In this document: positions 2,420-40,279 of the stretch, in pieces
Layout of the letters: each line of letters opens with the position of its first letter
Position numbering within the stretch: position 1 is the stretch's first letter
Sequence record: NC_019403.1
DNA: 43,731 nucleotides
Origin: Escherichia phage vB_EcoP_ACG-C91
Reading direction: 5' to 3' (one strand)
Program-made: the position numbers and the translations under genes
The notes under the pieces: model-generated
The model's database searches: none
What the model was told of the DNA's origin: nothing
What the model saw: the letters and a program-made list of their open reading frames with translations, nothing else

Positions 2420-2532
2420 AGATGGAAAGGCAATATAACTTCATCTTCTCAGACGGTGTAACCCTGAAATGTTCCTTACGATTTGCGCAGATTCGTGAGG
2501 AAGTACTAGGAACTACATACAAGCTATTTAGC
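2416..2532 (+). CDS. Possible small early ORF (38 aa) overlapping ocr stop
   Basis: ATG 2416 preceded by GGAGG (inside the ocr acidic tail); position analogous to T7 0.4-0.6 small genes; no homology recognised. Confidence 0.25.
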
Positions 2533-2549
2533 TGACACTATAAGAGAAG
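2526..2549 (+). promoter_or_regulatory. Phage-RNAP promoter-like sequence (ATTTAGCTGACACTATAAGAG)
   Basis: Close to the SP6 consensus ATTTAGGTGACACTATAGAAG; upstream of ORF 2612. Confidence 0.4.
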
Positions 2550-2611
2550 ACTTAACAAGGCGTTGCTACGGTAGCGCCTGATTAAACTTTCACTTACTAG
2601 GAGTTGAGATT

Positions 2612-2797
2612 ATGAAAACCTTGATTGGATGCTTCTTGTTGGCTTCTCTTGCTCTGGCATTTACCGCTAAAGCTGGTTATGACGCTTATAAAGTAGAACA
2701 AGCCCAGCAAGACTGGGCCAAAAAGTTCAACTTGTGCAGCAAGAGCAACACCTACGAGTACTGCAACAAAACACTAAGACACTTATGGAAAGAGTAA
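2612..2797 (+). CDS. Small secreted early protein (61 aa) with N-terminal signal peptide
   Basis: MKTLIGCFLLASLALAFTAKA-GYD: hydrophobic core plus AxA-type cleavage site; mature part has 2 Cys; AGGAG RBS. Confidence 0.6.
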   Translation: MKTLIGCFLLASLALAFTAKAGYDAYKVEQAQQDWAKKFNLCSKSNTYEYCNKTLRHLWKE

Positions 2798-2831
2798 CTA
2801 GCCTATAGCCTACCTGAGTGGGCTATGTGAT

Positions 2832-2852
2832 ATTTACTTACACTATAAGGTG
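2832..2852 (+). promoter_or_regulatory. Weak phage-promoter-like sequence (ATTTACTTACACTATAAGG)
   Basis: Partial match to the CACTATAG core; immediately upstream of ORF 2859. Confidence 0.3.
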
Positions 2853-2858
2853 ATTACT

Positions 2859-3743
2859 ATGACTACTGAAAACACCCTCGTGTCTGTCCGTGAAGCTGCA
2901 ACCGCTGAAATCAAGCAACATTTAGACAATATCGGCACTTCTTACATCAAAGTTGGTGCTTGTCTGAATGAATTACGCGGTGATTTCGAAGGTCAAAAAG
3001 ACTTTTTAGCTTATGTAGAATCAGAGTTCGGCATCAAGAAGGCACAATGCTACAAGCTGATGAGTGTAGCCCGTGTCTTTGAAGGAGACGAACGCTTTAA
3101 AGGTGTGGCTATGCGTGTAATGCTGGCGCTTGTTCCTTTCGCTGATGAAAATATAATCATGGAGAAGGCCGCAGAACTCGCCGCAGATGGCAAGCTGGAC
3201 ACTAACGCCGTAAACGCCTTGATTGAGCCTAAGAAAGAGATAAAGACCGAAACGGTACAATCTAAGGCTGAGACAGTAAAACCGCAGGAGAGCGCGACTG
3301 AGGCCGCAGAATCACAGGAAATGCAAGCGCCGCAGGTAGTGCCACCCGCTAGCGAGCAGGAGGCCGACGAATCAGCACCATGGGGAGAGGAAAGCAAGCC
3401 GGAGGCACCGAAGGCAGCGCCGCTGGATAACACGGCTAATACCGAAAACGCCGCTATGGCTAGCCTCTTAGCACAAATTAAGGCACTGACCGAGCAATTA
3501 CAGGCAGCTAATGACCGCATTGCCTCCTTAAGCAGCGCACGCGAAAGCAAGAAGGCAGCCGCGCCTATGCTGCCGCAATTCAAATCTTCCTGCTTCTATG
3601 CTCGCTTAGGTTTAAGCGCTGAGGAGGCAACGAAGAAAACAGCAGTTAACAAGGCACGCCGCGAACTGGTTAAGCTAGGCTACGGCGAAGGCCATGAAGC
3701 ATGGCCCTTAATCTCTGAGGCAGTAGAAGAATTAACTAAGTAA
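2859..3743 (+). CDS. Early protein with DUF3102-like N-terminal domain and low-complexity acidic/Ala/Gln-rich C-terminal half
   Basis: Motif IKVGACLNELRGDFEGQKDFLAYVESEFGIKKAQCYKLMSVARVF resembles the DUF3102 signature (G-x-x-L-x-E...G-x-F-x-x-W/Y...G-I/F-S-x-x-x-A-x-x-Y-M-x-L/V-A) as I recall it; C-terminal half is compositionally biased with a coiled-coil-like stretch. Confidence 0.7.
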   Translation: MTTENTLVSVREAATAEIKQHLDNIGTSYIKVGACLNELRGDFEGQKDFLAYVESEFGIKKAQCYKLMSVARVFEGDERFKGVAMRVMLALVPFADENIIMEKAAELAADGKLDTNAVNALIEPKKEIKTETVQSKAETVKPQESATEAAESQEMQAPQVVPPASEQEADESAPWGEESKPEAPKAAPLDNTANTENAAMASLLAQIKALTEQLQAANDRIASLSSARESKKAAAPMLPQFKSSCFYARLGLSAEEATKKTAVNKARRELVKLGYGEGHEAWPLISEAVEELTK

Positions 3744-3806
3744 CCTTATCGGTGGCATCTTCTTAGGTGTCACCTATTAAGGTTTCTTTCACTAGGAGTA
3801 AACAAG

Positions 3807-6434
3807 ATGCAAGACCTACACGCTATTCAACTTCAACTTGAAGAAGAAATGTTTAACGGCGGTATCCGTCGCTTTGAAGCGGACCAACAACGCCAGATTG
3901 CATCCGGTAATGAATCAGACACGGCATGGAATCGCCGCTTATTGTCCGAGTTAATCGCGCCAATGGCTGAAGGTATTCAGGCATACAAGGAAGAGTATGA
4001 AGGTAAAAGAGGCCGTGCACCGCGTGCATTAGCTTTCATTAACTGCGTAGAAAACGAAGTGGCAGCATATATCACGATGAAAATCGTTATGGATATGCTG
4101 AATACAGACGTTACCTTACAAGCAATCGCTATGAATGTAGCGGACCGCATCGAAGACCAAGTACGTTTTAGCAAGCTGGAAGGTCACGCAGCTAAGTACT
4201 TTGAGAAAGTGAAGAAGTCGCTTAAGGCTAGCAAGACTAAATCTTATCGTCATGCGCACAACGTAGCGGTAGTAGCTGAGAAATCTGTTGCTGACCGTGA
4301 CGCGGATTTCTCCCGTTGGGAGGCATGGCCTAAAGATACCTTGCTACAAATCGGTATGACCTTGCTAGAAATACTGGAAAATAGTGTATTCTTCAATGGT
4401 CAGCCTGTCTTTCTTCGCACCTTGCGCACTAATGGTGGCAAGCATGGCGTTTACTACTTACAGACCAGTGAACACGTAGGGGAATGGATTACAGCATTTA
4501 AAGAACATGTAGCGCAACTTAGCCCGGCTTATGCACCTTGCGTTATACCTCCGCGTCCGTGGGTTTCTCCTTTTAATGGTGGATTTCATACTGAGAAAGT
4601 AGCAAGCCGTATTCGTCTGGTTAAAGGCAGCCGTGAACACGTCCGTAAGCTGACCAAAAAGCAAATGCCAGCGGTTTACAAGGCTGTTAACGCTTTGCAG
4701 GCGACTAAATGGCAGGTTAACAAGGAAGTATTACAGGTAGTTGAAGACGTTATACGCCTTGATTTAGGTTATGGTGTGCCTTCATTTAAGCCGCTAATTG
4801 ACCGTGAGAACAAGCCAGCTAATCCCGTTCCTCTTGAGTTTCAGCACCTGCGAGGCCGTGAACTGAAAGAAATGCTCACGCCGGAACAATGGCAAGCCTT
4901 CATTAACTGGAAAGGTGAATGCACCAAGCTGTACACCGCAGAAACTAAGCGCGGCAGCAAGTCGGCTGCTACGGTCCGCATGGTTGGTCAGGCCCGTAAA
5001 TACAGCCAGTTTGACGCTATTTATTTTGTGTATGCACTGGATAGCCGCAGCCGTGTCTACGCGCAATCTAGCACGCTCTCACCGCAATCAAACGACTTAG
5101 GCAAAGCATTACTCCGCTTTACCGAAGGGCAGCGCCTTGATAGCACTGAGGCGCTTAAATGGTTTTTGGTGAACGGGGCGAATAACTGGGGTTGGGATAA
5201 GAAGACTTTCGACGTGCGCACCGCTAACGTGCTGGATGGCGAATTTCAAGACATGTGCCGCGACATTGCAGCCGATCCTCTAACCTTCACTCAATGGGTA
5301 AATGCTGATTCCCCTTACGGATTCCTTGCATGGTGCTTTGAATATGCTCGTTATTTAGATGCGCTGGATGAAGGTACACAAGACCAATTCATGACGCACC
5401 TACCCGTCCATCAAGACGGTAGTTGCTCTGGTATCCAGCACTATAGCGCGATGTTACGCGATGAAGTAGGTGCGAAAGCGGTAAACCTTAAGCCCTCTGA
5501 CTCCCCTCAAGATATTTATGGTGCCGTTGCGCAGGTAGTAATTCAGAAGAACTATGCATACATGAATGCAGAGGATGCGGAAACCTTCACTTCTGGCAGC
5601 GTGACTTTAACAGGTGCGGAACTGCGTAGCATGGCTAGTGCGTGGGATATGATAGGAATCACTCGCGGCCTAACCAAAAAGCCCGTAATGACACTGCCTT
5701 ACGGCAGCACACGTCTAACCTGCCGTGAGTCAGTGATTGATTATATCGTTGATTTAGAAGAAAAAGAGGCCCAACGGGCTATTGCGGAAGGGCGTACCGC
5801 CAATCCTGTACACCCTTTTGATAATGACCGTAAGGATGGCCTGACACCTAGCGCAGCTTATAACTATATGACAGCTTTAATCTGGCCTTCTATTTCGGAA
5901 GTGGTTAAAGCTCCTATAGTGGCAATGAAAATGATTCGTCAACTTGCCCGTTTCGCAGCTAAAAGGAATGAAGGCTTAGAGTATCCCTTGCCCACAGGCT
6001 TCATTCTGCAACAAAAGATTATGGCTACTGATATGCTCCGCGTATCCACTTGCCTGATGGGAGAAATCAAGATGAGTCTACAGATTGAAACGGACGTAGT
6101 GGATGAAACGGCCATGATGGGCGCTGCTGCTCCTAACTTCGTGCACGGTCATGATGCTAGCCACCTGATTCTAACGGTGTGCGACCTAGTGGATAAAGGT
6201 ATTACCTCCATTGCAGTTATCCATGATTCTTTCGGTACTCATGCAGGCCGCACCGCAGACCTACGTGACAGTCTAAGGGCAGAAATGGTGAAGATGTATC
6301 AAGGCCGTAACGCTCTGCAAAGCCTGTTAGATGAGCATGAAGAGCGCTGGTTAGTAGACACCGGAATCCAAGTGCCAGAGCAAGGAGAGTTTGACCTTAA
6401 CGAAATCTTAGTATCTGACTATTGCTTCGCATAA
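3807..6434 (+). CDS. Single-subunit DNA-dependent RNA polymerase (SP6-type)
   Basis: 875 aa; N-terminus [32 protein letters not shown] and long internal stretches match SP6 RNAP as I recall it; catalytic IHDSFGT motif; C-terminal ...FA. Confidence 0.97.
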
Positions 6435-6442
6435 TATTAATA

Positions 6443-6475
6443 GGCCATCCCTTCGGGAGTGGCCTTTTTCTTTTA
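6443..6475 (+). terminator. Rho-independent terminator after RNAP gene
   Basis: GGCCATCCC-TTCG-GGAGTGGCC hairpin followed by TTTTTCTTTT. Confidence 0.6.
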
Positions 6476-6509
6476 CCTACTACCTGTAACATTTCATTAA
6501 CATAAAAGT

Positions 6510-6525
6510 GTCTCACATGTGAGAC
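6510..6525. repeat. Conserved palindrome GTCTCACATGTGAGAC (copy 1)
   Basis: Perfect 16-bp palindrome immediately upstream of phage promoter. Confidence 0.7.
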
Positions 6526-6527
6526 TT

Positions 6528-6548
6528 ATTTACCGGACACTATAGGAT
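6528..6548 (+). promoter_or_regulatory. Phage-RNAP promoter (ATTTACCGGACACTATAGGAT)
   Basis: Matches the window consensus ATTTAC(T/C)GGACACTATAGAAG, SP6-like CACTATAG core. Confidence 0.7.
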
Positions 6549-6690
6549 AGCCGTCGGAGACGGGAAAGAAAGGGAAGATAAAGGATATAAAGGAAGTAAT
6601 AGGTATTAAAGGTTATATAGGTTATCTAGGAATACCTATTACCTTCTTCCTTCCTCTTATTGCCACTTAGAGGAAGGGCAGATCTAAGTT

Positions 6691-6706
6691 GTCTCACATG
6701 TGAGAC
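6691..6706. repeat. Conserved palindrome GTCTCACATGTGAGAC (copy 2)
   Basis: Perfect palindrome again followed by a promoter-like sequence. Confidence 0.7.
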
Positions 6707-6711
6707 TTCGT

Positions 6712-6732
6712 ATTTACCGGACAGTATAGATA
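6712..6732 (+). promoter_or_regulatory. Phage-promoter variant (ATTTACCGGACAGTATAGATA)
   Basis: Two mismatches from consensus core; upstream of gp1.1-like gene and primase/helicase. Confidence 0.5.
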
Positions 6733-6759
6733 AGATTAACTCACTTTGGAGATTTAACC

Positions 6760-6888
6760 ATGCGTAACTTTGAGAAGATGACCCGTAAAGCTAACCGTTT
6801 TGACATGGAAGAAGGGCAGAAGAAAGGCAAGAAGCTGAATAAACCTGTCCGTGATCGTGCATCTAAACGCGCTGCGTGGGAGTTCTAA
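6760..6888 (+). CDS. Small basic protein, T7 gp1.1-like (42 aa)
   Basis: MRNFEKMTRKANRFDMEEGQKKGKKLNKPVRDRASKRAAWEF resembles T7 gene 1.1 protein (MRNFEKMTKRSN...) as I recall it; GGAG RBS. Confidence 0.6.
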   Translation: MRNFEKMTRKANRFDMEEGQKKGKKLNKPVRDRASKRAAWEF

Positions 6889-6891
6889 GTT

Positions 6892-8880
6892 ATGGCTATT
6901 ATTCAGAATGTACCGTGTCCTGCCTGTCAAAAGAATGGACATGATATTACTGGCAACCATCTTATGATATTTGAGGATGGCGCGGGTTACTGTAACCGTG
7001 GGCACTTCCATGATAATGGCAGGCCATACTACCATAAGCCCGAAGGTGGCATCGAGATAACCGAGTTGCCCATTACTGGCAATATCAAATATACACCTTC
7101 TCAATTCAAAGAGATGGAGACGGAAGGGAAGATAAGCGACCCTAAGTTGCGCGCCATCGCACTTGGTGGTATGCGTATGAAAGACCGTTGGGAGGTCATG
7201 AATGAGCAAGAAAGGGCAGACCAAGAAGCAGAGTGGAAACTTGATGTTGAATGGTTCCTCACGCTTAAGCGTAAGAACCTTGTGTCCCGTCACATTCGAG
7301 GTGACATCGCAGCAATGTACGATGTGCGCGTTGGACACGATGAAGAGGGAAGAGTCAACCGTCACTATTATCCACGATATGAAAAGGGTGTGCTTGTTGG
7401 AGCAAAATGCCGGACGTTGCCGAAGGATTTTAAGTTCGGACACCTAGGTAAACTCTTTGGTATGCAAGACCTTTTCGGTATGAACACTTTGTCTCACGTG
7501 TTAGACAAGGGGAGACGAAAGGATTGCTTGCTTATTGTAGGTGGTGAACTTGATGCACTAGCAGCGCAGCAGATGCTCCTTGATTCTGCCAAGGGTACTA
7601 AGTGGGAAGGCCAGCCATACCATGTATGGTCTGTCAACAAAGGCGAGTCTTGCCTTGAAGAGATAGTGCAGAACCGTGAGCATATCGCCCAATTCAAGAA
7701 GATTATATGGGGTTTTGATGGGGATGAGGTAGGGCAGAAGCAGAACCAACAAGCTGCTCGCCTGTTTCCTGGCAAATCCTACATCCTCGAATATCCCTCT
7801 GGTTGCAAAGATGCTAACAAGGCATTGATGGCTGGCAAGGCTAAAGAGTTTGTTGATGCTTGGTTTAATGCCAAGTCATCTGATGAAGTCTTTGGTAGCC
7901 AGATTAAATCTATCGCATCTCAAAGGGGTAAGCTCAAGGCTGCACGTCCAGAGCAAGGGTTATCATGGCCTTGGCCTAAGCTGAACAAGGTAACGCTAGG
8001 TATTCGTAAGAACCAGCTTATCATTGTAGGTGCAGGTTCTGGTGTAGGTAAGACTGAGTTCCTTCGCGAAGTGGTTAAGCACCTCATTGAAGAACACGGT
8101 GAATCTGTAGGCATCATTTCTACAGAAGACCCAATGGTCAAGGTGTCCCGTGCTTTTATCGGCAAGTGGATTGATAAGCGTATTGAGTTACCGCCAACCA
8201 ACGACCCGAAAGAAGACGGATACCGTGAGGTGTTCGACTACACCGAGGAAGAAGCTAACGCTGCCATTGATTATGTGGCTGATACAGGAAAGCTATTTGT
8301 GGCTGACCTAGAAGGCGACTATTCTATGGAGAAGGTAGAGCAAACTTGCCTAGAGTTTGAGGCTATGGGCATTTCTAATATCATCATTGATAACTTAACG
8401 GGGATTAAATTAGATGAGCGTGCTTTTGGTGGGAAGGTTGGTGCACTTGATGAATGCGTCAAACGAATTGGTACTATCAAAGACCGACATGCGGTTACGA
8501 TTTTCCTTGTCTCTCACCTTACACGTCCTCCGGCAAACCGTACCCAACACGAAGAAGGTGGCGAAGTTATCCTTTCTGACTTCCGAGGCTCAGGCGCTAT
8601 CGGATTCTGGGCATCTTACGCCTTGGGGATTGAGCGTAATACAAGAGCTGAAACGCTTGATGAAAGGACTACCACGTACATCTCGTGTGTCAAAGACCGC
8701 GATCAAGGTATCTACACTGGAACCAAGGTCATGCTTAAGGGTGACATTCAAACCGGACGTTTAATGGAACCACAAGCTAGAACAAGGTCATTTGATACAG
8801 GTGAAACAAGGCAGCAAGAGGTGCCTGATTTACCGGACACTATAGAAGAGACAACCTTTGACGATGAACAGGAGTTTTAA
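6892..8880 (+). CDS. DNA primase/helicase (T7 gp4-like bifunctional)
   Basis: 662 aa; N-terminal Cys-rich zinc-binding region (CPACQ...CNRGHFH); Walker A GAGSGVGKTEF; acidic C-terminal tail ...DDEQEF. Confidence 0.95.
   Translation: MAIIQNVPCPACQKNGHDITGNHLMIFEDGAGYCNRGHFHDNGRPYYHKPEGGIEITELPITGNIKYTPSQFKEMETEGKISDPKLRAIALGGMRMKDRWEVMNEQERADQEAEWKLDVEWFLTLKRKNLVSRHIRGDIAAMYDVRVGHDEEGRVNRHYYPRYEKGVLVGAKCRTLPKDFKFGHLGKLFGMQDLFGMNTLSHVLDKGRRKDCLLIVGGELDALAAQQMLLDSAKGTKWEGQPYHVWSVNKGESCLEEIVQNREHIAQFKKIIWGFDGDEVGQKQNQQAARLFPGKSYILEYPSGCKDANKALMAGKAKEFVDAWFNAKSSDEVFGSQIKSIASQRGKLKAARPEQGLSWPWPKLNKVTLGIRKNQLIIVGAGSGVGKTEFLREVVKHLIEEHGESVGIISTEDPMVKVSRAFIGKWIDKRIELPPTNDPKEDGYREVFDYTEEEANAAIDYVADTGKLFVADLEGDYSMEKVEQTCLEFEAMGISNIIIDNLTGIKLDERAFGGKVGALDECVKRIGTIKDRHAVTIFLVSHLTRPPANRTQHEEGGEVILSDFRGSGAIGFWASYALGIERNTRAETLDERTTTYISCVKDRDQGIYTGTKVMLKGDIQTGRLMEPQARTRSFDTGETRQQEVPDLPDTIEETTFDDEQEF
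8827..8847 (+). promoter_or_regulatory. Phage-RNAP promoter embedded in the 3' end of the primase/helicase gene
   Basis: ATTTACCGGACACTATAGAAG exact consensus; encodes the DLPDTIEE residues of the helicase tail. Confidence 0.6.
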
Positions 8881-9041
8881 TGGAAATTATTAAACCAGTA
8901 TTGAATATCGGTATTGAAATCCTATTCATGCTTGTGATCGCAGATTATGCTGCACGATATGGATTCAAGAAAGCTGTGAAACTTATCGTTGCATCTGGTT
9001 TTATGATGTCAATGTTCTTTATTGTAACACGCCTTATCTAG
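8880..9041 (+). CDS. Small hydrophobic membrane protein (53 aa)
   Basis: ATG overlaps helicase stop (TAATGG); hydrophobic segments; below ORF-track cutoff. Confidence 0.3.
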   Translation: MEIIKPVLNIGIEILFMLVIADYAARYGFKKAVKLIVASGFMMSMFFIVTRLI

Positions 9042-9055
9042 TGTATTTATCAGGG

Positions 9056-9077
9056 CTTGTCTCACATGTGAGACAAG
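9056..9077. repeat. Conserved palindrome, extended to 22 bp (CTTGTCTCACATGTGAGACAAG) (copy 3)
   Basis: Perfect 22-bp palindrome. Confidence 0.7.
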
Positions 9078-9113
9078 CTCTTATTAAGTACATTAAATAA
9101 CTGGAGATTGATT

Positions 9114-9836
9114 ATGTATAAATTAGTATTGAATGCAGGTGATTATGTTCGTAACATCAATGAAGCCTCACGTCGTTATCGTTGCCGTGGTGTAGTAGCT
9201 CGTGTAAGTGAGAACATGTATCATGTAGAATATGATGGTGGTATTAAGGCTTCTTATCACAAGAAAACCGCACATAAATATCTTGAAAAGGTTGTAGAGG
9301 TAAACAATCAATGTAAGTGCATACATGATGAGGTTTGCGATAAGTGTGCACGTCAGGTAGTTAAAGCCTTTACCTTTGCTCAACGCTATGGTTCTATGTA
9401 TGGTGCTGGTAACAAGACCCTTGCAGAAGCAGCTTGGAAGACATTGCAGTTTGAGCGTTCAAATGGACGACGCACCACACTTAAGAAGGAGCGCCGCAAT
9501 GTAATCACTGGTAAGACTCAAAGTGAGATGATTAAGCAATATGGCACTGCATTAGGTGTTACGCAGTTTAATACTCGTGCATTGGGTAAATCCACAGGAC
9601 AAGCTATGGTGAAGATTGGCGAAGCCATGATGCATCCAAATGTACCTGTGCGAATCATGGATGTTGACCATGCAATCACAGAACATGGTACACCACGGCG
9701 TGTAGCTAATAATCATTTTGCCGACACTATAGAAGATATTATCCGTAAGCAAGAGTTGAAAGGTCTTCACATCTTGAATGGTGAAGAGTTACTGTATCTC
9801 CCTATCGTTACTGAAGAAACCTACGTGAATATCTAA
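9114..9836 (+). CDS. Hypothetical protein (241 aa)
   Basis: ORF track (9108..9836); start moved to ATG 9114 with GGAG RBS at 7-nt spacing; no family recognised. Confidence 0.65.
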   Translation: MYKLVLNAGDYVRNINEASRRYRCRGVVARVSENMYHVEYDGGIKASYHKKTAHKYLEKVVEVNNQCKCIHDEVCDKCARQVVKAFTFAQRYGSMYGAGNKTLAEAAWKTLQFERSNGRRTTLKKERRNVITGKTQSEMIKQYGTALGVTQFNTRALGKSTGQAMVKIGEAMMHPNVPVRIMDVDHAITEHGTPRRVANNHFADTIEDIIRKQELKGLHILNGEELLYLPIVTEETYVNI

Positions 9837-9846
9837 GGAGTTAATC

Positions 9847-10065
9847 ATGACTAAGGTATTAATTTATATGCGTGGACCTCATAAATGCTATGCAGTTGTA
9901 GCACCAGATGGTGTTAAGCCCTATGGTACTTCAAAAGGATTGGCATTAATAGGTGCTAGTCGTAGTGCAAGTTTCCAAATGGAACTTTTTGGTCATTGGA
10001 CTGAATGGCAATTCCGTGAGGATTTTAAAGTTGTTGGCAGCTTTATGGTGAAACATGCAAAATAA
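9847..10065 (+). CDS. Hypothetical protein (72 aa)
   Basis: ORF track; AAGGAG RBS. Confidence 0.6.
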   Translation: MTKVLIYMRGPHKCYAVVAPDGVKPYGTSKGLALIGASRSASFQMELFGHWTEWQFREDFKVVGSFMVKHAK

Positions 10066-10264
10066 ACACAGCCTTAAGATGTTTGATGGTCACGAAGACC
10101 TGCAAGCACAAATTACTAATCAAGCCTTCCTGTTTGCACAGTTAACTATGGCTGAAGCAAAGAAGAATAGTCTGACATGTGAGCAGGTTATCAAGGAGGC
10201 AACTTGGGAGCCACACCAAGGCAAATACATGGGCCAGAAACTAACTGTAACACGCAGTCGGTAA
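10055..10264 (+). CDS. Hypothetical protein (69 aa; alternative start ATG 10079)
   Basis: ORF track; overlaps previous gene by 11 nt. Confidence 0.5.
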   Translation: MQNKHSLKMFDGHEDLQAQITNQAFLFAQLTMAEAKKNSLTCEQVIKEATWEPHQGKYMGQKLTVTRSR

Positions 10265-10273
10265 GTCAAGGGT

Positions 10274-10291
10274 TGTCTCACACGTGAGACA
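10274..10291. repeat. Conserved palindrome variant TGTCTCACACGTGAGACA (copy 4), followed by a T-run
   Basis: Palindrome then GCCTTTTAT; possible terminator or processing hairpin. Confidence 0.6.
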
Positions 10292-10321
10292 GCCTTTTAT
10301 CATATTGATTGGAGGTGCATT

Positions 10322-13244: not shown

Positions 13245-13265
13245 ATTTACTGGACACTATAGAAG
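13245..13265 (+). promoter_or_regulatory. Phage-RNAP promoter (ATTTACTGGACACTATAGAAG)
   Basis: Exact consensus. Confidence 0.75.
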
Positions 13266-15128: not shown

Positions 15129-15144
15129 GTCTCACACGTGAGAC
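15129..15144. repeat. Conserved palindrome GTCTCACACGTGAGAC (copy 5)
   Basis: Perfect palindrome directly after stop of ORF 14909..15127 and 15 bp upstream of a promoter. Confidence 0.7.
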
Positions 15145-15159: not shown

Positions 15160-15180
15160 ATTTACTGGACACTATAGAAG
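15160..15180 (+). promoter_or_regulatory. Phage-RNAP promoter (ATTTACTGGACACTATAGAAG)
   Basis: Exact consensus. Confidence 0.75.
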
Positions 15181-15604: not shown

Positions 15605-15663
15605 TAATAGCAGGTGTAGCCTCTGTTAGTCCTAGTTGACTATCACGCTCACCTCATCTAATG

Positions 15664-15696
15664 CCCTGTCTGCCTTAGTGTAGGCAGGGTCTTTTG
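15664..15696 (+). terminator. Rho-independent terminator
   Basis: 9-bp stem CCCUGUCUG/UAGGCAGGG (with G-U pairs) followed by UCUUUUG; near-copy of the capsid terminator hairpin. Confidence 0.6.
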
Positions 15697-15721
15697 CGTA
15701 ATAGTTATTGGAGAATGAATT

Positions 15722-23399: not shown

Positions 23400-23420
23400 A
23401 TTTACTGGACACTATAGAAG
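23400..23420 (+). promoter_or_regulatory. Phage-RNAP promoter upstream of capsid gene
   Basis: ATTTACTGGACACTATAGAAG exact consensus followed by strong RBS. Confidence 0.8.
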
Positions 23421-24676: not shown

Positions 24677-24684
24677 TACCTATG

Positions 24685-24720
24685 CCCTATCTACCTTGCG
24701 TAGGTAGGGTTCTTTTTGTT
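24685..24720 (+). terminator. Rho-independent terminator after capsid gene
   Basis: 9-bp stem CCCUAUCUA/UAGGUAGGG, 7-nt loop, then UUCUUUUUGUU. Confidence 0.8.
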
Positions 24721-34796: not shown

Positions 34797-35758
34797 TGAG
34801 TTATACTTTCACAGAGCATATAGCCAATGGTACGCAGGTTACTTATCCTTTCAGCTTTGCTGGCAGGGATAAGGGTTATCTCCGTGCCTCAGATGTAATA
34901 GTGGAGTCTTTCCAAGCTGGGACTTGGATAGAAGTAACATCTGGTTGGCAACTGTCTGGTACACACCAGATTACCTTTGATGTAGCACCAGTTAGGGGTT
35001 TGAAGTTCCGCATTCGAAGAGAGGTGCAAAAGGAGTACCCATATGCAGAGTTTGACCGTGGTGTTGCTCTGGATATGAAATCACTGAATGGCTCCTTTAT
35101 TCACATCCTAGAAATCACCCAAGAAATTCTAGATGGGTTTTATCCAGAAGGTTACTTCGTTAAGCAGGATGTGTCATGGGGTGGCAATAAGATAACCAAC
35201 CTAGGCAATGGTACTGAGCAGGGAGATGCGGTCAATAAAGGGCAGCTTGACGCTGTGGATGCTAAGCACACAGAGTGGAACTCACGTCAGGATTTAGAGA
35301 TCGCAGGTATTAAGAAGGGCATGACCTCTGGGGTAGCACACAGAACAATCCCTTGGTATATGTTGGCCTCTGGTGGAGAACAAATCATACGCCCACCTTA
35401 CACCTTTGATGATGCAATAGTGTTTATTAATGGTGTATTCCAGCATGAATTAGCTGGTGCAGTGTCGGTGGGGCATGACGTTATAGCCTTGTCTGAACCA
35501 CTTCAAGCAGGGGATGAGTTGTATGTACTTATTGGTAGCCGCATCACACCACCTACTAGTGAAGATACTATCCTGTTATCCCAGCAGGTAAGTGAGGGAA
35601 CACAGGCAATTGACATAGTAACTGCCTTTAAGCGTATTGATGTTTACCTCGACGGCCTGTATCAACCTAATGACTCTTATAACATTCAGGATACTACTAT
35701 TACTTTTAGTGAACCATTACCTGAATGCACACTGAGCGCCAAACTACAGTTAGTATAA
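34796..35758 (+). CDS. Tail fiber-like adaptor protein (T7 gp17 N-terminal-domain homolog)
   Basis: 320 aa; N-terminal region resembles the tail-attachment domain of T7 gp17; too short to be a full fiber. Confidence 0.8.
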   Translation: MSYTFTEHIANGTQVTYPFSFAGRDKGYLRASDVIVESFQAGTWIEVTSGWQLSGTHQITFDVAPVRGLKFRIRREVQKEYPYAEFDRGVALDMKSLNGSFIHILEITQEILDGFYPEGYFVKQDVSWGGNKITNLGNGTEQGDAVNKGQLDAVDAKHTEWNSRQDLEIAGIKKGMTSGVAHRTIPWYMLASGGEQIIRPPYTFDDAIVFINGVFQHELAGAVSVGHDVIALSEPLQAGDELYVLIGSRITPPTSEDTILLSQQVSEGTQAIDIVTAFKRIDVYLDGLYQPNDSYNIQDTTITFSEPLPECTLSAKLQLV

Positions 35759-35769
35759 GGAGGGGTTGA

Positions 35770-35994
35770 ATGATTAACTCCGAACTGGTAGACAGTGGTG
35801 TGAAGCTGGCGCCACCTGCACTTGTCTCAGGTGGGTACTTCCTCGGTATCAGTTGGGATAACTGGCTTGTAATTATGACCCTCATTTACACTATTATGCA
35901 AATGGGTTGGTTTATCTACGAGAAGGTCCGAACTATAAAACAGAGAAGAAAAGAGAAGTGTATTCAGAAGTTGAAAGAGCAGGATACATCATAA
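35770..35994 (+). CDS. Holin (T7 gp17.5-like)
   Basis: 74 aa; LAPPALVSGGYFLGISWDNWLVIMTLIYTIMQMGWFIY parallels T7 holin (AAPIVGTGV...GLSLNEWFYVAAIAYTVVQIG); single TM plus charged C-terminus. Confidence 0.7.
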   Translation: MINSELVDSGVKLAPPALVSGGYFLGISWDNWLVIMTLIYTIMQMGWFIYEKVRTIKQRRKEKCIQKLKEQDTS

Positions 35995-36344
35995 CTGAAG
36001 AAGGTTTTGTATTAAGTAAGAAGGGTAAGAGGCTGGCAGGAGCTATCAGAGAAAGAGGCTACCGTACTGTTTCTCTGCGAATTGATGGTAAGACTAAAAC
36101 TTATAAAGTACACAGATTAGTAGCATGGAAGCACGTACCTAATCCTCACAATTATAAGATAGTAAGCCATAAAGATCGCAACCCTTCTAATTGTCATAAA
36201 GACAACCTAGAGTGGTGTACTCAACAGGAGAATACAATACATGCACATTATGGTTGTTTAAACATTGACAACAAGGTTGCTGAAGCTAAACGATTAAGGG
36301 AGGAGGTTGGTCTTACCCTAAAATTGGTAGGCATTTCGGACTAG
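35907..36344 (+). CDS. HNH homing endonuclease (HNH_3 type)
   Basis: GYRTVSLRIDGKTKTYKVHRLVAWKHVPNPHNYKIVSHKDRNPSNCHKDNLEWCTQQEN: canonical HNH motif; start uncertain (ATG 35907 overlaps holin; alternative in-frame GTG 35958). Confidence 0.85.
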   Translation: MVYLREGPNYKTEKKREVYSEVERAGYIITEEGFVLSKKGKRLAGAIRERGYRTVSLRIDGKTKTYKVHRLVAWKHVPNPHNYKIVSHKDRNPSNCHKDNLEWCTQQENTIHAHYGCLNIDNKVAEAKRLREEVGLTLKLVGISD

Positions 36345-36384
36345 ACCACAAGACCGTATGGTACTGGATTAACGGGAGGCGTAC

Positions 36385-36684
36385 ATGAGCGTACACAATA
36401 AACATGCAGCTACAGAGGATGAAGTTGGCATTCTGCATGGTGCTATTACCAAAATCTTCAATAAGAAAGCACAGGCAATACTGGACACTATAGAGGGGGA
36501 CCCCGATGCAGCATTGCATTTAGTATCTGGTAAAGATATTGGTGCTATGTGTAAGTGGGTTCTAGATAACGGCATCACTGCTACACCTGCTGCACAGCAG
36601 GAAGAGTCCAAGTTATCTAAGCGCCTCAAGGCTATCCGAGAGGCATCCAGTGGTAAGAGCATCCAATTCACTAAGGAGGATTGA
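36385..36684 (+). CDS. Terminase small subunit (putative)
   Basis: 99 aa directly upstream of and overlapping large terminase; GGGAGG RBS. Confidence 0.6.
   Translation: MSVHNKHAATEDEVGILHGAITKIFNKKAQAILDTIEGDPDAALHLVSGKDIGAMCKWVLDNGITATPAAQQEESKLSKRLKAIREASSGKSIQFTKED
36470..36492 (+). promoter_or_regulatory. Promoter-like sequence inside small-terminase ORF (ACTGGACACTATAGAGGG)
   Basis: Matches the downstream 15 nt of consensus; upstream part diverged. Confidence 0.35.
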
Positions 36685-38582
36685 TGGCTAAGGCAAGAGA
36701 ATCACAAGCAGAGGCTCTTGCCAGATGGGAGATGTTACAGGAGTTACAGCAGACCTTTCCTTACACAGCAGAAGGTTTGCTTCTCTTTGCAGATACAGTT
36801 ATCCATAACTTGATTGCAGGCAACCCTCATCTGATTCGTATGCAGGCCGATATATTAAAGTTCTTATTCTATGGACATAAGTATCGCCTCATCGAAGCGC
36901 CTCGTGGTATTGCTAAGACAACACTATCAGCAATCTATACAGTATTCCGTATCATCCATGAGCCACATAAACGTATCATGGTTGTATCCCAAAACGCCAA
37001 GCGAGCAGAGGAAATTGCAGGTTGGGTAGTGAAAATCTTCCGTGGCCTAGACTTCCTTGAGTTTATGCTACCGGACATATACGCTGGCGACCGTGCATCC
37101 GTCAAAGCATTTGAGATTCACTACACGTTACGCGGCAGCGATAAGTCACCTTCTGTATCCTGTTACTCTATCGAAGCAGGTATGCAGGGTGCTCGTGCTG
37201 ATATTATTCTAGCAGATGACGTAGAATCGATGCAGAATGCTCGTACAGCAGCAGGTCGTGCCTTGCTTGAGGAATTAACTAAGGAATTTGAATCTATCAA
37301 CCAGTTTGGTGATATTATCTACCTTGGGACACCACAGAATGTAAACTCTATCTACAATAACTTGCCTGCCCGTGGATACTCTGTTCGTATCTGGACGGCA
37401 CGTTATCCTTCAGTAGAACAGGAGCAATGTTATGGTGACTTCCTTGCACCAATGATTGTTCAAGATATGAAGGATAACCCAGCACTTCGCTCTGGCTACG
37501 GTTTGGATGGTAACAGTGGTGCACCTTGCGCACCTGAGATGTATGATGACGAAGTGTTGATTGAGAAGGAAATTTCTCAAGGTGCTGCTAAGTTCCAGCT
37601 TCAGTTTATGCTGAACACTCGCATGATGGATGCTGACAGATACCCACTTCGTCTAAACAATCTAATCTTTACTTCGTTCGGTACAGAGGAAGTCCCTGTG
37701 ATGCCTACGTGGAGTAATGATTCTATTAATATCATTGGCGATGCCCCTAAGTATGGTAACAAGCCTACAGACTTTATGTATAGACCTGTAGCCCGTCCTT
37801 ACGAATGGGGTGCTGTTACCCGTAAGATTATGTATATTGACCCTGCGGGTGGTGGTAAGAACGGGGATGAAACGGGTGTGGCTATCGTCTTCCTGCACGG
37901 CACATTCATTTATGTGTATCAGTGCTTTGGTGTGCCGGGAGGATACCGCGAATCGTCCCTGAATCGCATTGTGCAGGCCGCAAAGCAGGCGGGTGTTAAA
38001 GAGGTATTCATAGAGAAAAACTTCGGCCATGGCGCGTTTGAGGCCGTAATTAAGCCGTACTTTGAGCGAGAGTGGCCTGTGACTCTGGAAGAGGATTACG
38101 CCACCGGACAGAAAGAGTTGCGTATCATTGAAACACTAGAGCCACTAATGGCGGCCCACAGGCTCATCTTCAACTCAGAGATGGTCAAGTCTGATTTTGA
38201 GTCGGTACAGCACTATCCGCTTGAACTACGCATGTCATACAGCCTTTTCAATCAAATGTCGAACATCACGATTGAGAAGAACAGCCTACGACACGATGAC
38301 CGCTTAGACGCTCTGTATGGCGCTATACGGCAATTAACTTCTCAGATAGACTATGACGAGGTTACACGGATTAATCGCCTCAGAGCGCAGGAGATGCGCG
38401 ATTACATCCATGCTATGAACACACCTCACCTCCGTAGGGCAATGCTCTATGGAGATTATGGCACTGAGCGAAGAGTAACCAACACTTCCGTGGCTATGCA
38501 GCAAAGAGTATACGGTCAGAATTACAGGAGTAAATCGGCAAGCAGAAATACACTTTCTGCAAGGATTTCAAGGACTTATTAA
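36684..38582 (+). CDS. Terminase large subunit (DNA maturase, T7 gp19-like)
   Basis: 632 aa; Walker A-like PRGIAKTT; ATG 36684 with AAGGAGG RBS. Confidence 0.9.
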   Translation: MAKARESQAEALARWEMLQELQQTFPYTAEGLLLFADTVIHNLIAGNPHLIRMQADILKFLFYGHKYRLIEAPRGIAKTTLSAIYTVFRIIHEPHKRIMVVSQNAKRAEEIAGWVVKIFRGLDFLEFMLPDIYAGDRASVKAFEIHYTLRGSDKSPSVSCYSIEAGMQGARADIILADDVESMQNARTAAGRALLEELTKEFESINQFGDIIYLGTPQNVNSIYNNLPARGYSVRIWTARYPSVEQEQCYGDFLAPMIVQDMKDNPALRSGYGLDGNSGAPCAPEMYDDEVLIEKEISQGAAKFQLQFMLNTRMMDADRYPLRLNNLIFTSFGTEEVPVMPTWSNDSINIIGDAPKYGNKPTDFMYRPVARPYEWGAVTRKIMYIDPAGGGKNGDETGVAIVFLHGTFIYVYQCFGVPGGYRESSLNRIVQAAKQAGVKEVFIEKNFGHGAFEAVIKPYFEREWPVTLEEDYATGQKELRIIETLEPLMAAHRLIFNSEMVKSDFESVQHYPLELRMSYSLFNQMSNITIEKNSLRHDDRLDALYGAIRQLTSQIDYDEVTRINRLRAQEMRDYIHAMNTPHLRRAMLYGDYGTERRVTNTSVAMQQRVYGQNYRSKSASRNTLSARISRTY

Positions 38583-38601
38583 TTACCGGACACTATAGAA
38601 G
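38582..38601 (+). promoter_or_regulatory. Phage-RNAP promoter immediately after terminase stop
   Basis: AATTACCGGACACTATAGAAG, one mismatch from consensus. Confidence 0.7.
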
Positions 38602-38738
38602 GAAGGCCCAGATAATAAGAGAAATAACAAGGATAATATAGGTTAACCTAGGTTATATAGGTATTCCTTAGTATGGGTGTACTCCTGTACACCCTATTCC
38701 TTACTTCCTTACTATACTTACATAATAGGAGAGAGAGA

Positions 38739-39017
38739 ATGTCTAATAGTTATAGTACACAACCTCTTACAGGTAAGTCTGCTCGTAAGCAGATACAACC
38801 TGTTAGTGAAGCCCTGATGCTTCCTGTAGTTTACGGGGACACTGTTGAGAAGAAAGGTGATGTTATTAATGATGCCACCAAATCAGGTAAGCAGAAAGGG
38901 GCCATGGTGTGTCTTGATACACATGATAACCTGGTTATTGCTATCGCAGTTGATGGCAAAGAAGATTCCAATTGGTTGACAGTTAATAAAGCGGTCACTA
39001 CTATTACCCCAGTTTAA
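38739..39017 (+). CDS. Hypothetical protein (92 aa), paralog of the next gene
   Basis: ATG 38739 with AGGAGAG RBS; shares MSN start, SGKQKG(A/S)MV and IAIA motifs with ORF 39030. Confidence 0.65.
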   Translation: MSNSYSTQPLTGKSARKQIQPVSEALMLPVVYGDTVEKKGDVINDATKSGKQKGAMVCLDTHDNLVIAIAVDGKEDSNWLTVNKAVTTITPV

Positions 39018-39029
39018 GAGGAGAATTAC

Positions 39030-39347
39030 ATGTCTAATTATGGAGACGCAGATACTGTTACGGGTCAGGCTTTTCGAGTAAAAACTGTACAAACAACTGC
39101 AACGGCAATTCCTTTGCCTATTGTTGCTGAAGCAGACCTTAAGAAGAAAGATCACCCTATCAACATTAAACACCTATCTGGTAAACAGAAAGGCTCCATG
39201 GTTGCTGTAGAGAAAGCAGGCAACCCCTTGTACATCGCTATTGCACGTGGTAGTGAACCTACTGACCCTTGGGATGCAACCGCTATGGAGTCGACCCCTG
39301 TAACCCCTAAGGGCTTAATTGTAAAAGATGAGGTCAATAGTGCTTAA
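39030..39347 (+). CDS. Hypothetical protein (105 aa), paralog of the previous gene
   Basis: ORF track; AAGAGGAG RBS. Confidence 0.65.
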   Translation: MSNYGDADTVTGQAFRVKTVQTTATAIPLPIVAEADLKKKDHPINIKHLSGKQKGSMVAVEKAGNPLYIAIARGSEPTDPWDATAMESTPVTPKGLIVKDEVNSA

Positions 39348-39684
39348 CAAGTACTTCAAGCGTAAAGAGTTTGCTTGCCGTTGTGGGTGCGGTACATCCA
39401 CTGTTGATGCTGAGTTATTACAGGTAGTCACAGATGTACGTGAGCATTTTGGCGTACCTGTAGTTATCACTTCTGGTCATCGCTGTGCTAAGCACAACGC
39501 CAACGTAGGTGGAGCTAAGAACTCCATGCATCTTACAGGTAAGGCTGCTGATATTAAGGTACAAGGTATTACACCGTATCGTGTATGGTCTTACCTAACA
39601 GCACGATACCCTAATAGATATGGAATTGGGTCTTACCAAAACTTCACTCACATTGATGTACGAGATGGGTGTGCGCGATGGTAA
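39328..39684 (+). CDS. Endolysin, peptidase M15 family (L-alanyl-D-glutamate peptidase-like)
   Basis: SGHRCAKHNANVGGAKNSMHLTGKAADI...THIDVR: zinc-binding H/D/H signature of M15 peptidases; start may be GTG 39340. Confidence 0.85.
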   Translation: MRSIVLNKYFKRKEFACRCGCGTSTVDAELLQVVTDVREHFGVPVVITSGHRCAKHNANVGGAKNSMHLTGKAADIKVQGITPYRVWSYLTARYPNRYGIGSYQNFTHIDVRDGCARW

Positions 39685-39809
39685 GTTGTGTTGAATGGTG
39701 TGAACGCATGGTTGCTCAAGCTGCCGAGGACGGCAACTATGATGACTGGAAGAACTACTCAGACCTGTTAGCTCAATGGAAGGGGAGATGCAATGAAAAA
39801 GTTGTTTAA
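39678..39809 (+). CDS. Small hypothetical protein (43 aa)
   Basis: ATG overlaps endolysin stop; no TM; below ORF-track cutoff. Confidence 0.3.
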   Translation: MVSCVEWCERMVAQAAEDGNYDDWKNYSDLLAQWKGRCNEKVV

Positions 39810-39942
39810 GTCTAAGAAGGTGGTAGGTGCACTGGTTGCACTGGTGATTGCCCTTGTTTCTGTAGGACTTGGCGTAGATTTTGGTGAAGGTACGGAAGGT
39901 TCCGTCACTGACGTGGTGTGCCAAGTAATCACCTGTGAATAA
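39793..39942 (+). CDS. Small membrane protein (49 aa), possible lysis accessory
   Basis: ATG with AAGGGGAG RBS; VVGALVALVIALVSVGLGV predicted TM. Confidence 0.45.
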   Translation: MKKLFKSKKVVGALVALVIALVSVGLGVDFGEGTEGSVTDVVCQVITCE

Positions 39943-40156
39943 GGTGCTTGAGGTGGTGGCAGGCCTTATTGGCCTGCTGCTTGCCGCTAAGAAGAAAAAG
40001 GAAGACAAGGAGGCACAAAGTGAAGCGAATCGTGCTAGCGACAATCCTGCTGATTGGTTCGCTGATCACTTCAGGGTGTCAGACGGCGTTACCAGAGAGT
40101 CAAAAGGTAAAGCCGCTGAAGCAGACGCTGACGGCAGTTTACGAGGTAGACGATAA
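39935..40156 (+). CDS. Putative i-spanin (Rz-like)
   Basis: N-terminal TM (VLEVVAGLIGLLLAA) followed by charged domain; GTG start; contains the o-spanin ORF in another frame. Confidence 0.5.
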   Translation: MNKVLEVVAGLIGLLLAAKKKKEDKEAQSEANRASDNPADWFADHFRVSDGVTRESKGKAAEADADGSLRGRR

Positions 40157-40229
40157 GGTCTGCTTTAGTAAGCCTGACGCTACAAAACTTGGTTTGTACA
40201 TTCTTTCGCTAGAACGCGGATATAATTAA
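40020..40229 (+). CDS. Putative o-spanin (Rz1-like lipoprotein), embedded/overlapping in i-spanin gene
   Basis: GTG 40020 7 nt after AAGGAGG; signal peptide with lipobox-like ...LITSGC followed by Pro-containing mature region. Confidence 0.55.
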   Translation: MKRIVLATILLIGSLITSGCQTALPESQKVKPLKQTLTAVYEVDDKVCFSKPDATKLGLYILSLERGYN

Positions 40230-40258
40230 TACATAGCTTTATGTATCAGTGTCTTACG

Positions 40259-40279
40259 ATTTACTGGACACTATAGAAG
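40259..40279 (+). promoter_or_regulatory. Phage-RNAP promoter upstream of tailspike genes
   Basis: ATTTACTGGACACTATAGAAG exact consensus. Confidence 0.75.

Follow-up and report, generated by a model that had tools for sequence, protein, structure and literature searches.

A predicted K1E/K1-5-type promoter set in Escherichia phage vB_EcoP_ACG-C91, with one copy inside the helicase gene

Introduction

Promoters of the phages K1-5 and K1E are said to have been listed in the original genome papers, those of Scholl et al. in 2004 and of Stummeyer et al. in 2006, and the T7 literature describes which base each of the recognition residues R746, N748, R756 and Q758 of T7 RNA polymerase (RNAP) contacts. 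A genome-wide covariation study, which quotes the same four residues for T7 RNAP, placed K1E and SP6 in separate RNAP–promoter clusters and reported that their polymerases do not follow the recognition and covariation rules derived from T7 (PMC11880802). Promoters of this kind have also been put to experimental use. Reporters in the C3P3-G1 system carried the capsid-gene promoter of each phage, and K1E RNAP together with the K1E promoter gave expression in cells (PMC6412113); TATTTACTGGACACTATAGGAGGA supports in vitro transcription by a polymerase with >84% identity to SP6 RNAP, and a polymerase using a sequence that begins TATTTACTGGACACTATAG is also active on the SP6 promoter (PMC13029058).

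Because the literature both separates the K1E and SP6 polymerase–promoter clusters and uses this promoter type experimentally, we regard the 23-bp repeat described here as the already recognised promoter set of the K1E group: real, neatly organised and ordinary. Its value for discovery is small, and what it gives is an identification of the DNA as that of a K1E-like phage and a ready transcription map. The exact 21-mer of the motif had no match in the literature searched.

Genome and promoter set

The window, by which we mean the whole stretch of DNA analysed (43,731 nt, NC_019403.1), is the near-complete genome of a K1E/K1-5-like coliphage, Escherichia phage vB_EcoP_ACG-C91. It shares 92–95% nucleotide identity with K1E and other Vectrevirus genomes (~92% with K1E) and its gene map is colinear with both K1E and K1-5. 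Of the Vectrevirus records, 85 cover at least 80% of a query running from the RNAP to the DNA polymerase. A comparison of the two ends of the window gave no terminal repeat.

Searching for ATTTACYGGACACTATAGAAG with at most three mismatches returned 11 matches, all on the + strand, with 0 expected from 100 dinucleotide-preserving shuffles. A position weight matrix (PWM) trained on the nine best sites recovered these at 29.8–36.7 bits (maximum possible, 36.7) and scored four sites outside the training set at 23.6 (2526), 23.6 (6712), 21.9 (9715) and 22.1 bits (36476), compared with a maximum of 19.9 bits among 200 shuffled genomes and a best minus-strand score of 9.4. Promoter-like copies number 13 in total, all on the + strand and pointing rightward in the same direction as the genes, with leaders of 31–215 nt to the next start codon. 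The predicted promoters, each numbered from position -17, and one degenerate look-alike are as follows.

2526–2548, + strand: variant promoter ATTTAGCTGACACTATAAGAGAA, with A rather than G at +1; 23.6 bits
2832–2853, + strand: degenerate promoter look-alike ATTTACTT-ACACTATAAGGTG, one nucleotide short and lacking G at +1; <6 bits ungapped
6528–6550, + strand: intergenic promoter ATTTACCGGACACTATAGGATAG, identical in K1E and K1-5; 31.7 bits
6712–6734, + strand: variant promoter CAGTATAG, with G at -5, identical in K1E and K1-5; 23.6 bits
8828–8850, + strand: consensus promoter ATTTACCGGACACTATAGAAGAG inside the helicase gene; 36.2 bits of 36.7 possible
9715–9737, + strand: weak promoter-like copy ATTTTGCCGACACTATAGAAGAT inside gp10 (HFADTIED); 21.9 bits
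13245–13267, + strand: intergenic consensus promoter upstream of gp15; 35.5 bits
14014–14036, + strand: promoter AATTACTGGACACTATAGAACAA upstream of gp16; 33.5 bits
15160–15182, + strand: intergenic consensus promoter upstream of gp18; 36.7 bits
18325–18347, + strand: promoter ATTTAGTTGACACTATAGAACAA upstream of gp23; 29.8 bits
23400–23422, + strand: intergenic consensus promoter upstream of the major capsid gene; 36.0 bits
36476–36498, + strand: promoter-like copy CAATACTGGACACTATAGAGGGG inside the small terminase gene (AILDTIEG); 22.1 bits
38581–38603, + strand: promoter AATTACCGGACACTATAGAAGGA upstream of gp41; 33.3 bits
40259–40281, + strand: intergenic consensus promoter upstream of gp46 and the endosialidase tailspike gene; 36.7 bits

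The repeated motif with an SP6-like core that a sequence-only reading of this DNA had proposed is therefore borne out by 13 copies that exceed chance in the PWM scan and the shuffles. Most of its coordinates were right, those at 8827, 9714, 14013 and 38582 being off by 1 nt and that at 36470 by 6 nt, and the site at 6528, which it had called a near-exact copy, is one up to +1 only, as +2 to +4 read GAT and not AAG. By their consensus (ATTTACYGGACACTATAGAAG), G at -9, A at -8 and CACTATAG core, the nine sites and four variants belong to the K1E/K1-5 type, in which G at -9 and A at -8 are invariant across 37 unique sites. Very probably, in our view, these sites serve a K1E/K1-5-like podophage (Vectrevirus, Molineuxvirinae) as its middle and late promoters, and the polymerase that reads them is its own single-subunit RNAP of the T7 type.

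Promoter positions are conserved. Among 14 K1E-type genomes, diversity is 0.023 at promoter positions versus 0.115 in flanks, about five-fold lower (Mann–Whitney p = 5e-13). Values for individual sites are 0.009 at 6528 (-17 to +1; flanks, 0.059), 0.000 at 13245 (flanks, 0.051), 0.000 at 15160 (-17 to +1) and 0.000 at 40259 (flanks, 0.058).

All 13 sites are syntenic and in the same order in K1E and K1-5, which share the consensus ATTTACYGGACACTATAGAAG; the 23 nt are identical at 10 of the 13 in K1E and 11 of the 13 in K1-5, and the remaining sites carry 1–3 changes (9715 and 36476; in K1-5 also 8828, 14014 and 38581). The ITS at 36476 is GAAGAA in these phages and GAGGGG in the window, and K1-5 has T at -7 of the helicase-tail copy, where the window has the consensus C. 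The site at 23400 has the same sequence as the K1E capsid-gene upstream site. SP6 (Zindervirus) has a consensus, ATTTAGGTGACACTATAGAAG, of the same length, with the same ATTTA element and with -9 to +6 identical to the window, and differs at -12 to -10 (GGT versus CYG in the window). Counterparts carrying GGTGA lie at 12 of the 13 places in SP6, including the helicase-tail copy and the stop-codon overlaps, leaving out only the small-terminase copy. This comparison with K1E, K1-5 and SP6 sites, which had been suggested as a check, agrees with the earlier proposal as far as -12 to -10 is concerned; the distinct region had been drawn as -12 to -8, and -9 and -8 are GA, the same as in SP6. Class II and III promoters of T7 likewise span 23 bp, start at TATAG and have an AT-rich element upstream, whereas their -12 to -8 sequence is unrelated to that of the window.

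Two variants near the RNAP gene have counterparts elsewhere. Site 2526 lies upstream of a gp5-like ORF, gp6 and the RNAP gene and is identical in K1E and K1-5, and its TATAAGA start recurs at the same locus in lineages with other promoter types. Sites 6528 and 6712 are the first and second of two promoters after the RNAP gene; gp8 begins 31 nt downstream of 6712, whose SP6-type counterpart is also off consensus in the core (TATTG). The copy at 2832, earlier taken for a variant promoter, did not survive scrutiny: it has lost one base compared with K1E and K1-5, the missing base falls between the upstream and core halves, and the copy overlaps the gp6 ribosome-binding site. In the K1-5 homologue, the G that is otherwise invariant at -9 is replaced by A, and +1 is T. 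It is probably inactive, either a look-alike or a relic.

Overlap with coding sequence

Tight packing of the genome puts seven promoters in overlap with coding sequence: three (8828, 9715 and 36476) are fully embedded and four overlap an upstream stop codon. The stop codons account for the consensus departures of the latter four, and it is of general interest that they explain why particular promoters deviate. At 2526, positions -10 to -8 are the TGA that ends gp4; A at -16 is the final base of a TAA stop codon at both 14014 (gp15.5) and 38581 (large terminase); and G at -12 of 18325 is the final base of the gp22 stop codon TAG, where SP6 has TAA. The three embedded copies are all read in the same frame, GAC ACT ATA GAA, giving D-T-I-E.

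A tentative reading, to which we give appreciable but minority weight, is that the copies at 9715, 36476 and 2832 are relics or by-products of D-T-I-E coding and that the intergenic and stop-codon-overlapping copies alone fire. The deletion and lack of G at +1 in the 2832 copy fit this reading, as does the absence of the ATTTA upstream element from 36476. Site 9715 is syntenic in K1E, K1-5 and SP6, deviates from consensus at -13, -12 and -10, and is no better conserved among K1E-type genomes than its flanks; the relative L027 keeps an SP6-type sequence at the equivalent place though its own promoters have changed. Because of this flank-like conservation and the foreign-type sequence in L027, 9715 may be a non-promoter, maintained by coding constraint or recombination.

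Other observations pull against this demotion of the embedded copies. Both 9715 and 36476, the weaker in-ORF copies predicted earlier and duly present, score above every shuffle. The large terminase start lies 191 nt beyond site 36476; K1E and K1-5 have this site too, but SP6 does not and encodes LAAVEE there. From -12 to +2 the site is perfect consensus, a match that required DTI where SP6 has AAV, three amino-acid differences. In the relative L018, the helicase-tail promoter is lost and the equivalent of 9715 is a perfect consensus, as if compensating.

The helicase-tail copy

6892–8880, + strand: primase/helicase gene gp9, 662 aa, with DnaB_C (residues 357–604) and Toprim_2 (Pfam)

The product of gp9 is 98.2% identical to K1E gp9. 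As had been claimed from the sequence (there at 8827), a promoter copy lies within the codons of the helicase C-terminal tail: 8828–8850 falls wholly within ORF 6892–8880 and covers codons 646–653 of 662 (GAT TTA CCG GAC ACT ATA GAA GAG, or DLPDTIEE), with the gp9.5 start 35 nt downstream of +1. The peptide at the promoter position in SP6 is ELGDTIEE.

The further claim, that one sequence is constrained as both promoter and protein tail, draws its support mainly from comparison between eight lineages, whose promoter motifs were derived de novo by 9-mer counting. The helicase-tail DNA at -13 to -5 matches the consensus of its own lineage at 8–9 of 9 positions and those of other lineages at 0–6, and the tail peptides are DLPDTIEE, ELGDTIEE, ELETTIEE, DLGRTIEQ, EIGATIEQ, DMCCTIED, PIVAGIEE and ELPPSIEE. 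Judged by this covariation, the helicase-tail copy is a real case of dual coding. We lean, with reservations, towards a wider reading in which the gp9 tail linker of the Molineuxvirinae would be written by the promoter and rewritten at each shift in RNAP specificity, so leaving an in-frame record, and in which Ser747 or Arg in the polymerase would set discrimination at -11.

Conservation of the copy for a role of the peptide DLPDTIEE in the helicase, its promoter resemblance being incidental, is improbable. The tail does end in acidic residues and a final Phe (TTFDDEQEF), resembling the polymerase-binding tail of T7 gp4, and the reduction of synonymous diversity within the clade is not significant: diversity is 0.064 in the eight promoter codons versus 0.171 gene-wide among 11 closely related K1E-clade sequences, but 18% of the gene's windows of eight codons are equal or lower. 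A peptide-driven constraint is, however, at odds with a peptide that varies between lineages while the DNA fits its own promoter at 8–9 of 9 specificity positions, with L018, which has no helicase-tail motif yet keeps the QEF end, and with the location of the copy past the DnaB_C domain.

The helicase tail offers a clean case from nature in which amino acids, here in a probably flexible protein linker, are dictated by a regulatory sequence. No description of the peptide tracking the promoter was found in the literature searched; the SP6 and K1-5 genome papers, which lie outside that search, may mention it. Examples of such rewriting would include Pro in K1E versus Gly in SP6, and a Cys-Cys pair in one lineage.

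RNA polymerase and promoter specificity

3807–6434, + strand: single-subunit RNAP gene, 875 aa (Pfam RNA_pol, 1.2e-88; RPOL_N)
6045–6047, + strand: codon for the specificity-loop residue Ser747, counterpart of N748 of T7 RNAP in the alignment; Arg in SP6-type polymerases

The RNAP of the window is 98.6% identical to that of K1E (gp7), 99.1% to that of K1-5, 85% to that of SP6 and only ~32% to that of T7, and in both the specificity loop and the AT-rich loop it has exactly the sequence of the K1E and K1-5 enzymes. Together with the synteny of all 13 sites, these identities uphold the earlier suggestion of a K1E/K1-5-type specificity. The loop alignment is gap-free and anchored on T7 R746 and G753. 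Ser versus Arg at the N748 equivalent, the state in which the window and SP6 differ, is fixed between 10 K1E-type and 7 SP6-type polymerases, and the residues aligned with T7 R746, R756 and Q758 are unchanged between the two types, as are bases -9 to -7.

Position -11 is the best discriminator between the SP6 and K1E types (G versus pyrimidine): it is C or T at 13 of 13 window sites and G at 37 of 40 unique SP6-type sites. No window site has the strict SP6-type sequence, GGTGA at -12 to -8 with G at -11. SP6-like bases do occur, with G at -12 of 2526, 9715 and 18325 and T at -10 of 2526 and 18325, and because of these three sites and the published cross-activity the -12 to -10 difference does not establish exclusive specificity.

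Arginine classically pairs with G. The -12 to -10 difference would be read out largely by Ser747, as we infer from the Arg that SP6 has at this residue and the G that it has at -11. The assignment to Ser747 or Arg rests on effectively one phylogenetic split, across which 57 differences are fixed between K1E-type and SP6-type RNAPs. A rule linking Arg or Lys to G at -11 and Ser to a pyrimidine holds in six of eight lineages and fails in L020 and L024-26, where Arg goes with A or T at -11; because of these failures we infer the rule rather than assert it. Polymerase–promoter pairs close to SP6 are a setting in which the comparison may aid engineering.

Proposed transcription scheme

6442–6474, + strand: terminator-like hairpin with T-run directly after the RNAP gene, read from sequence
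15663–15700, + strand: intrinsic-terminator-like hairpin after gp18 (11-bp stem with six GC pairs, T-run)
24684–24720, + strand: intrinsic-terminator-like hairpin directly after the capsid gene (11-bp stem, T-run)

By analogy with T7 RNAP, the phage polymerase would bind duplex DNA from -17 to -5, its AT-rich recognition loop contacting ATTTA and its specificity-loop beta-hairpin entering the major groove at -12 to -7; it would then melt the TATA bases and initiate at the G of TATAG. Along the genome, the sites would set out nested transcription units, and the RNAP gene, gp18 and the capsid gene would each be followed by a partial terminator. Copies that fit the consensus precede gp15, gp18, the capsid gene, gp46 and the tailspike gene, and gp9.5, and the copies that depart from it, at 2526 (+1 is A), 6712 (-5 is G), 9715 and 36476, are presumably weaker.

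A different cis function for the repeat, whether in replication, packaging or recombination or as the binding site of another protein, is very improbable and we rejected it: the lack of promoter annotation in the four GenBank/RefSeq records inspected (K1E, K1-5, SP6 and KAW1A4500) would fit, but the CACTATAG core is the promoter core common to T7, T3 and SP6, the copies are oriented and placed before genes, a cognate RNAP is present, and the same sequence has published use as a promoter. For annotation, the map is of use to these relatives, whose inspected records are without promoters.

The KAW1A4500 record does annotate a terminator at the place of the hairpin at 6442–6474. T7 likewise has two promoters after the RNAP gene, some promoters within coding sequence and a terminator after the capsid gene, and the hairpin at 24684–24720 occupies the position of T7 T-phi.

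Promoter copies in the window

The motif ATTTACYGGACACTATAGAAG, allowing up to three mismatches, occurs 11 times in the window, with 11 of 11 copies on the plus strand, and was absent from 100 dinucleotide-preserving shuffles. A position weight matrix spanning -17 to +6 scored its training set, the nine best copies, at 29.8–36.7 bits and also recovered four copies outside that set (2526, 6712, 9715 and 36476, named by their -17 coordinate; 21.9–23.6 bits). The best score was 9.4 bits on the minus strand and 19.9 bits in 200 shuffled genomes. The promoter list of the sequence-only reading is therefore right, apart from coordinate corrections of 1 nt each at 8828, 9715, 14014 and 38581 and of 6 nt at 36476. 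The copy it placed at 2832 did not hold up: one base is missing between its halves, it has no G at +1, and its K1-5 homologue carries A in place of the otherwise invariant -9 G. We regard this copy as a mere look-alike or the relic of a site.

Identity of the promoter set

The window aligns to K1E over 96% of its length at 92% identity, and to SP6 over 70% at 76%. The RNA polymerase (RNAP)-to-DNA-polymerase block shares 93–95% identity with K1E and with many further Vectrevirus genomes, a 25-kb middle-to-late block is 91–93% identical to Vectrevirus genomes including K1E, and the gene map is colinear with K1E (tblastn, K1E proteins as queries).

Genes confirmed by Pfam
3807–6434, single-subunit RNA polymerase
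6892–8880, DnaB-type primase/helicase
36385–36684, small terminase

The matrix recovered all 13 sites in unchanged order in K1E and K1-5, with the 23-nt sequence identical to the window at 10 of 13 sites in K1E and 11 of 13 in K1-5, and 1–3 changes in the remainder. For 12 of the 13 it also found an SP6 counterpart, in which -12 to -8 reads GGTGA or a close variant. Given this synteny and an RNAP 98.6% identical to K1E and 99.1% to K1-5, versus 85% to SP6, the proposed K1E/K1-5-type assignment is correct; the finding was accurate and its interpretation is supported. The set consists of the standard, already recognised promoters of K1E/K1-5-like phages, reportedly listed when the genomes of K1-5 and K1E were published (Scholl et al. 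2004; Stummeyer et al. 2006). Site 23400 is identical in sequence to the K1E site upstream of the K1E capsid gene. In the C3P3-G1 expression system, whose reporters use each phage's capsid-gene promoter, K1E RNAP is combined with a K1E promoter (PMC6412113). A 2025 covariation study separates 'K1E' and 'SP6' as distinct RNAP–promoter clusters (PMC11880802).

Maintenance and locus-specific variants

Using the helicase as query, we gathered 28 related loci from IMG/VR, which sort into a K1E-type group, an SP6-type group and six more lineages, every one having a promoter consensus of its own. Across 14 K1E-type genomes, diversity was 0.023 over the 23 promoter positions versus 0.115 in 90-nt flanks (p = 5e-13), the flank value being somewhat inflated by alignment gaps.

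Locus-specific variants persist across lineages, which suggests that promoter strengths are tuned. Of the two sites that follow the RNAP gene, the second has an off-consensus core in both K1E and SP6 types. The site before gp5-gp6-RNAP (2526–2548) has A, not G, at +1 (TATAAGA) in the K1E type, the SP6 type and three lineages whose promoters are quite unlike these (homologues in SP6 (L003) and loci L015–L019, L021, L022 and L024). Its presence in all lineages examined, whatever their promoter specificity, suggests a deliberately attenuated, conserved promoter feeding the polymerase gene itself.

Overlap with coding sequence

ORFs overlap 7 of the 13 promoters. Three promoters are fully embedded, all in the frame GAC ACT ATA GAA (D-T-I-E); the TAG of TATAG closes one of the remaining two frames. 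At four sites the upstream gene's stop codon lies inside the promoter and is exactly its departure from consensus, so that the off-consensus bases are explained by the stop codons; a consensus promoter there would lengthen the upstream ORF by 12–39 nt.

Peptides encoded by embedded promoters
Helicase, DLPDTIEE
gp10, HFADTIED
Small terminase, AILDTIEG

Promoter variants formed by stop codons
2526, T at -10, TGA of gp4
14014, A at -16, TAA of gp15.5
18325, G at -12, TAG of gp22
38581, A at -16, TAA of large terminase

In the helicase, the DnaB_C domain stops at residue 604, before the promoter copy in the tail. This copy directly precedes an acidic C-terminus whose last residue is Phe (TTFDDEQEF), which we take to resemble the polymerase-binding tail of T7 gp4. 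The final codons, CAG GAG TTT TAA, also provide the Shine-Dalgarno sequence and overlap the gp9.5 ATG. Positions -12 to -10 form exactly one helicase codon, which specifies Pro (CCG) in K1E-type phages and Gly (GGT) in SP6. The suggestion that one sequence is constrained as both promoter and protein tail was borne out in eight lineages: over -13 to -5 the DNA matches its own lineage's consensus at 8–9 of 9 positions and others' at 0–6, and the peptide varies (DLPDTIEE, ELGDTIEE, ELETTIEE, DLGRTIEQ, EIGATIEQ, PIVAGIEE, DMCCTIED and ELPPSIEE). In the SP6-type locus L018 (IMGVR_UViG_2706795336_000001, 8700–9233), the helicase-tail copy is lost and the next site downstream, within the gp10/gp11 homologue, is a perfect consensus. 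Together these patterns are good evidence, at the level of sequence comparison, that the promoter drives the tail peptide, not the reverse. Synonymous diversity within the clade (0.064 at promoter codons versus 0.171) points the same way, not significantly, with 18% of windows as low. This tracking of the tail peptide, like the account of the promoter variants by stop codons, adds neatly, if modestly, to the known set.

Promoter specificity and the RNAP loop

K1E-type and SP6-type promoters differ only within -12 to -10. The best discriminator is -11: all 13 sites of the window have C or T there, and 37 of the 40 unique SP6-type sites have G. In T7 RNAP, residue N748 reads -10 and -11 (T7 and T3 literature). 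The specificity loop aligns with that of T7 RNAP without gaps, and at the N748-equivalent position K1E-type enzymes all have Ser747 and SP6-type enzymes all have Arg. Of the four base-specific T7 contact residues, R746, N748, R756 and Q758 (PMC11880802), the other three align with R, K and S in both types alike, which fits the shared C-7, G-9 and A-8. From the matching Ser747/Arg and -11 splits and the role of N748, we infer by analogy that Arg in SP6 RNAP would read G at -11, and that Ser747 in K1E-type RNAP may relax or redirect this contact. Caveats are that the two groups form one phylogenetic split with 57 fixed RNAP differences, that Arg occurs without G at -11 in two other lineages, and that K1E and SP6 enzymes are reported not to obey rules derived from T7 (PMC11880802).

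K1E-type specificity need not exclude SP6-type promoters. In the window, G stands at -12 in sites 2526, 9715 and 18325, together with T at -10 in 2526 and 18325; within the binding region, 18325 is a single base away from the SP6 consensus. In a 2026 study, a polymerase >84% identical to SP6 RNAP transcribed from TATTTACTGGACACTATAGGAGGA in vitro and used the SP6 promoter as well (PMC13029058).

Uncertain copies

Sites 9715 and 36476 may be weak candidate promoters. The former is off-consensus at -13, -12 and -10 and no better conserved than its flanks; locus L027 (IMGVR_UViG_3300045988_000861; 12642), whose own promoter type is ATTTGTGTTGCACTATAG and whose loop has Phe at the T7 R756-equivalent position, keeps an SP6-type sequence at the equivalent place in its gp11 homologue. 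Site 36476 matches perfectly from -12 to +2 but has no ATTTA element; the equivalent position in SP6 encodes LAAVEE, so 36476 is specific to the K1E lineage. That both sites, along with the 2832 copy, are non-functional is a serious alternative, which we consider slightly the less probable.

Other sequence features

A 16-bp palindrome, GTCTCAC(A/G)(T/C)GTGAGAC, has eight copies within three mismatches in the window versus 0.26 expected; most of them lie between genes of the early and middle region.

Palindrome copies
569–584
6510–6525
6691–6706
7491–7506
9059–9074
10170–10185 (weak)
10275–10290
15129–15144

Three lie 2–15 nt upstream of promoters 6528, 6712 and 15160. K1E and K1-5 carry the copies at syntenic places. 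The palindrome is absent from SP6-type loci and also found in the Erwinia-type relative L029, whose promoters differ greatly. It may bind a protein or form a hairpin in RNA.

Between the two post-RNAP promoters lies a 170-nt, AT- and purine-rich stretch (6545–6711) with AGGAAG/AAAGG repeats and no ORF. Its layout resembles the T7 primary replication origin, in which paired promoters are followed by an AT-rich region. Terminator-like hairpins with closely similar stems (GCCCTGTCTGCC... and GCCCTATCTACC...) follow gp18 (15663–15690) and the capsid gene (24684–24710).

The holin and small-terminase genes flank an extra 145-aa ORF (35907–36344), which matches HNH homing endonucleases (phrog_59, 3.4e-33) and, by tblastn, no K1E protein. 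The large terminase gene is intact in the window (36684–38582), whereas in K1E it is split by a homing endonuclease. Of the two window ends (1–120 and 43400–43731), the first begins with a GC-rich stretch, TCTCGCCCTCGCCCC..., that looks like the left end of an SP6-group phage genome; its sequence was not repeated in the last 600 nt, so we assumed that the window holds a single copy of a terminal repeat. The distant relative L030 (IMGVR_UViG_3300027711_000003) carries at ~1496–1710 a long tandem array of a 9–10-nt unit, TGTCCTGGT(C), with 23 exact 9-mer copies.
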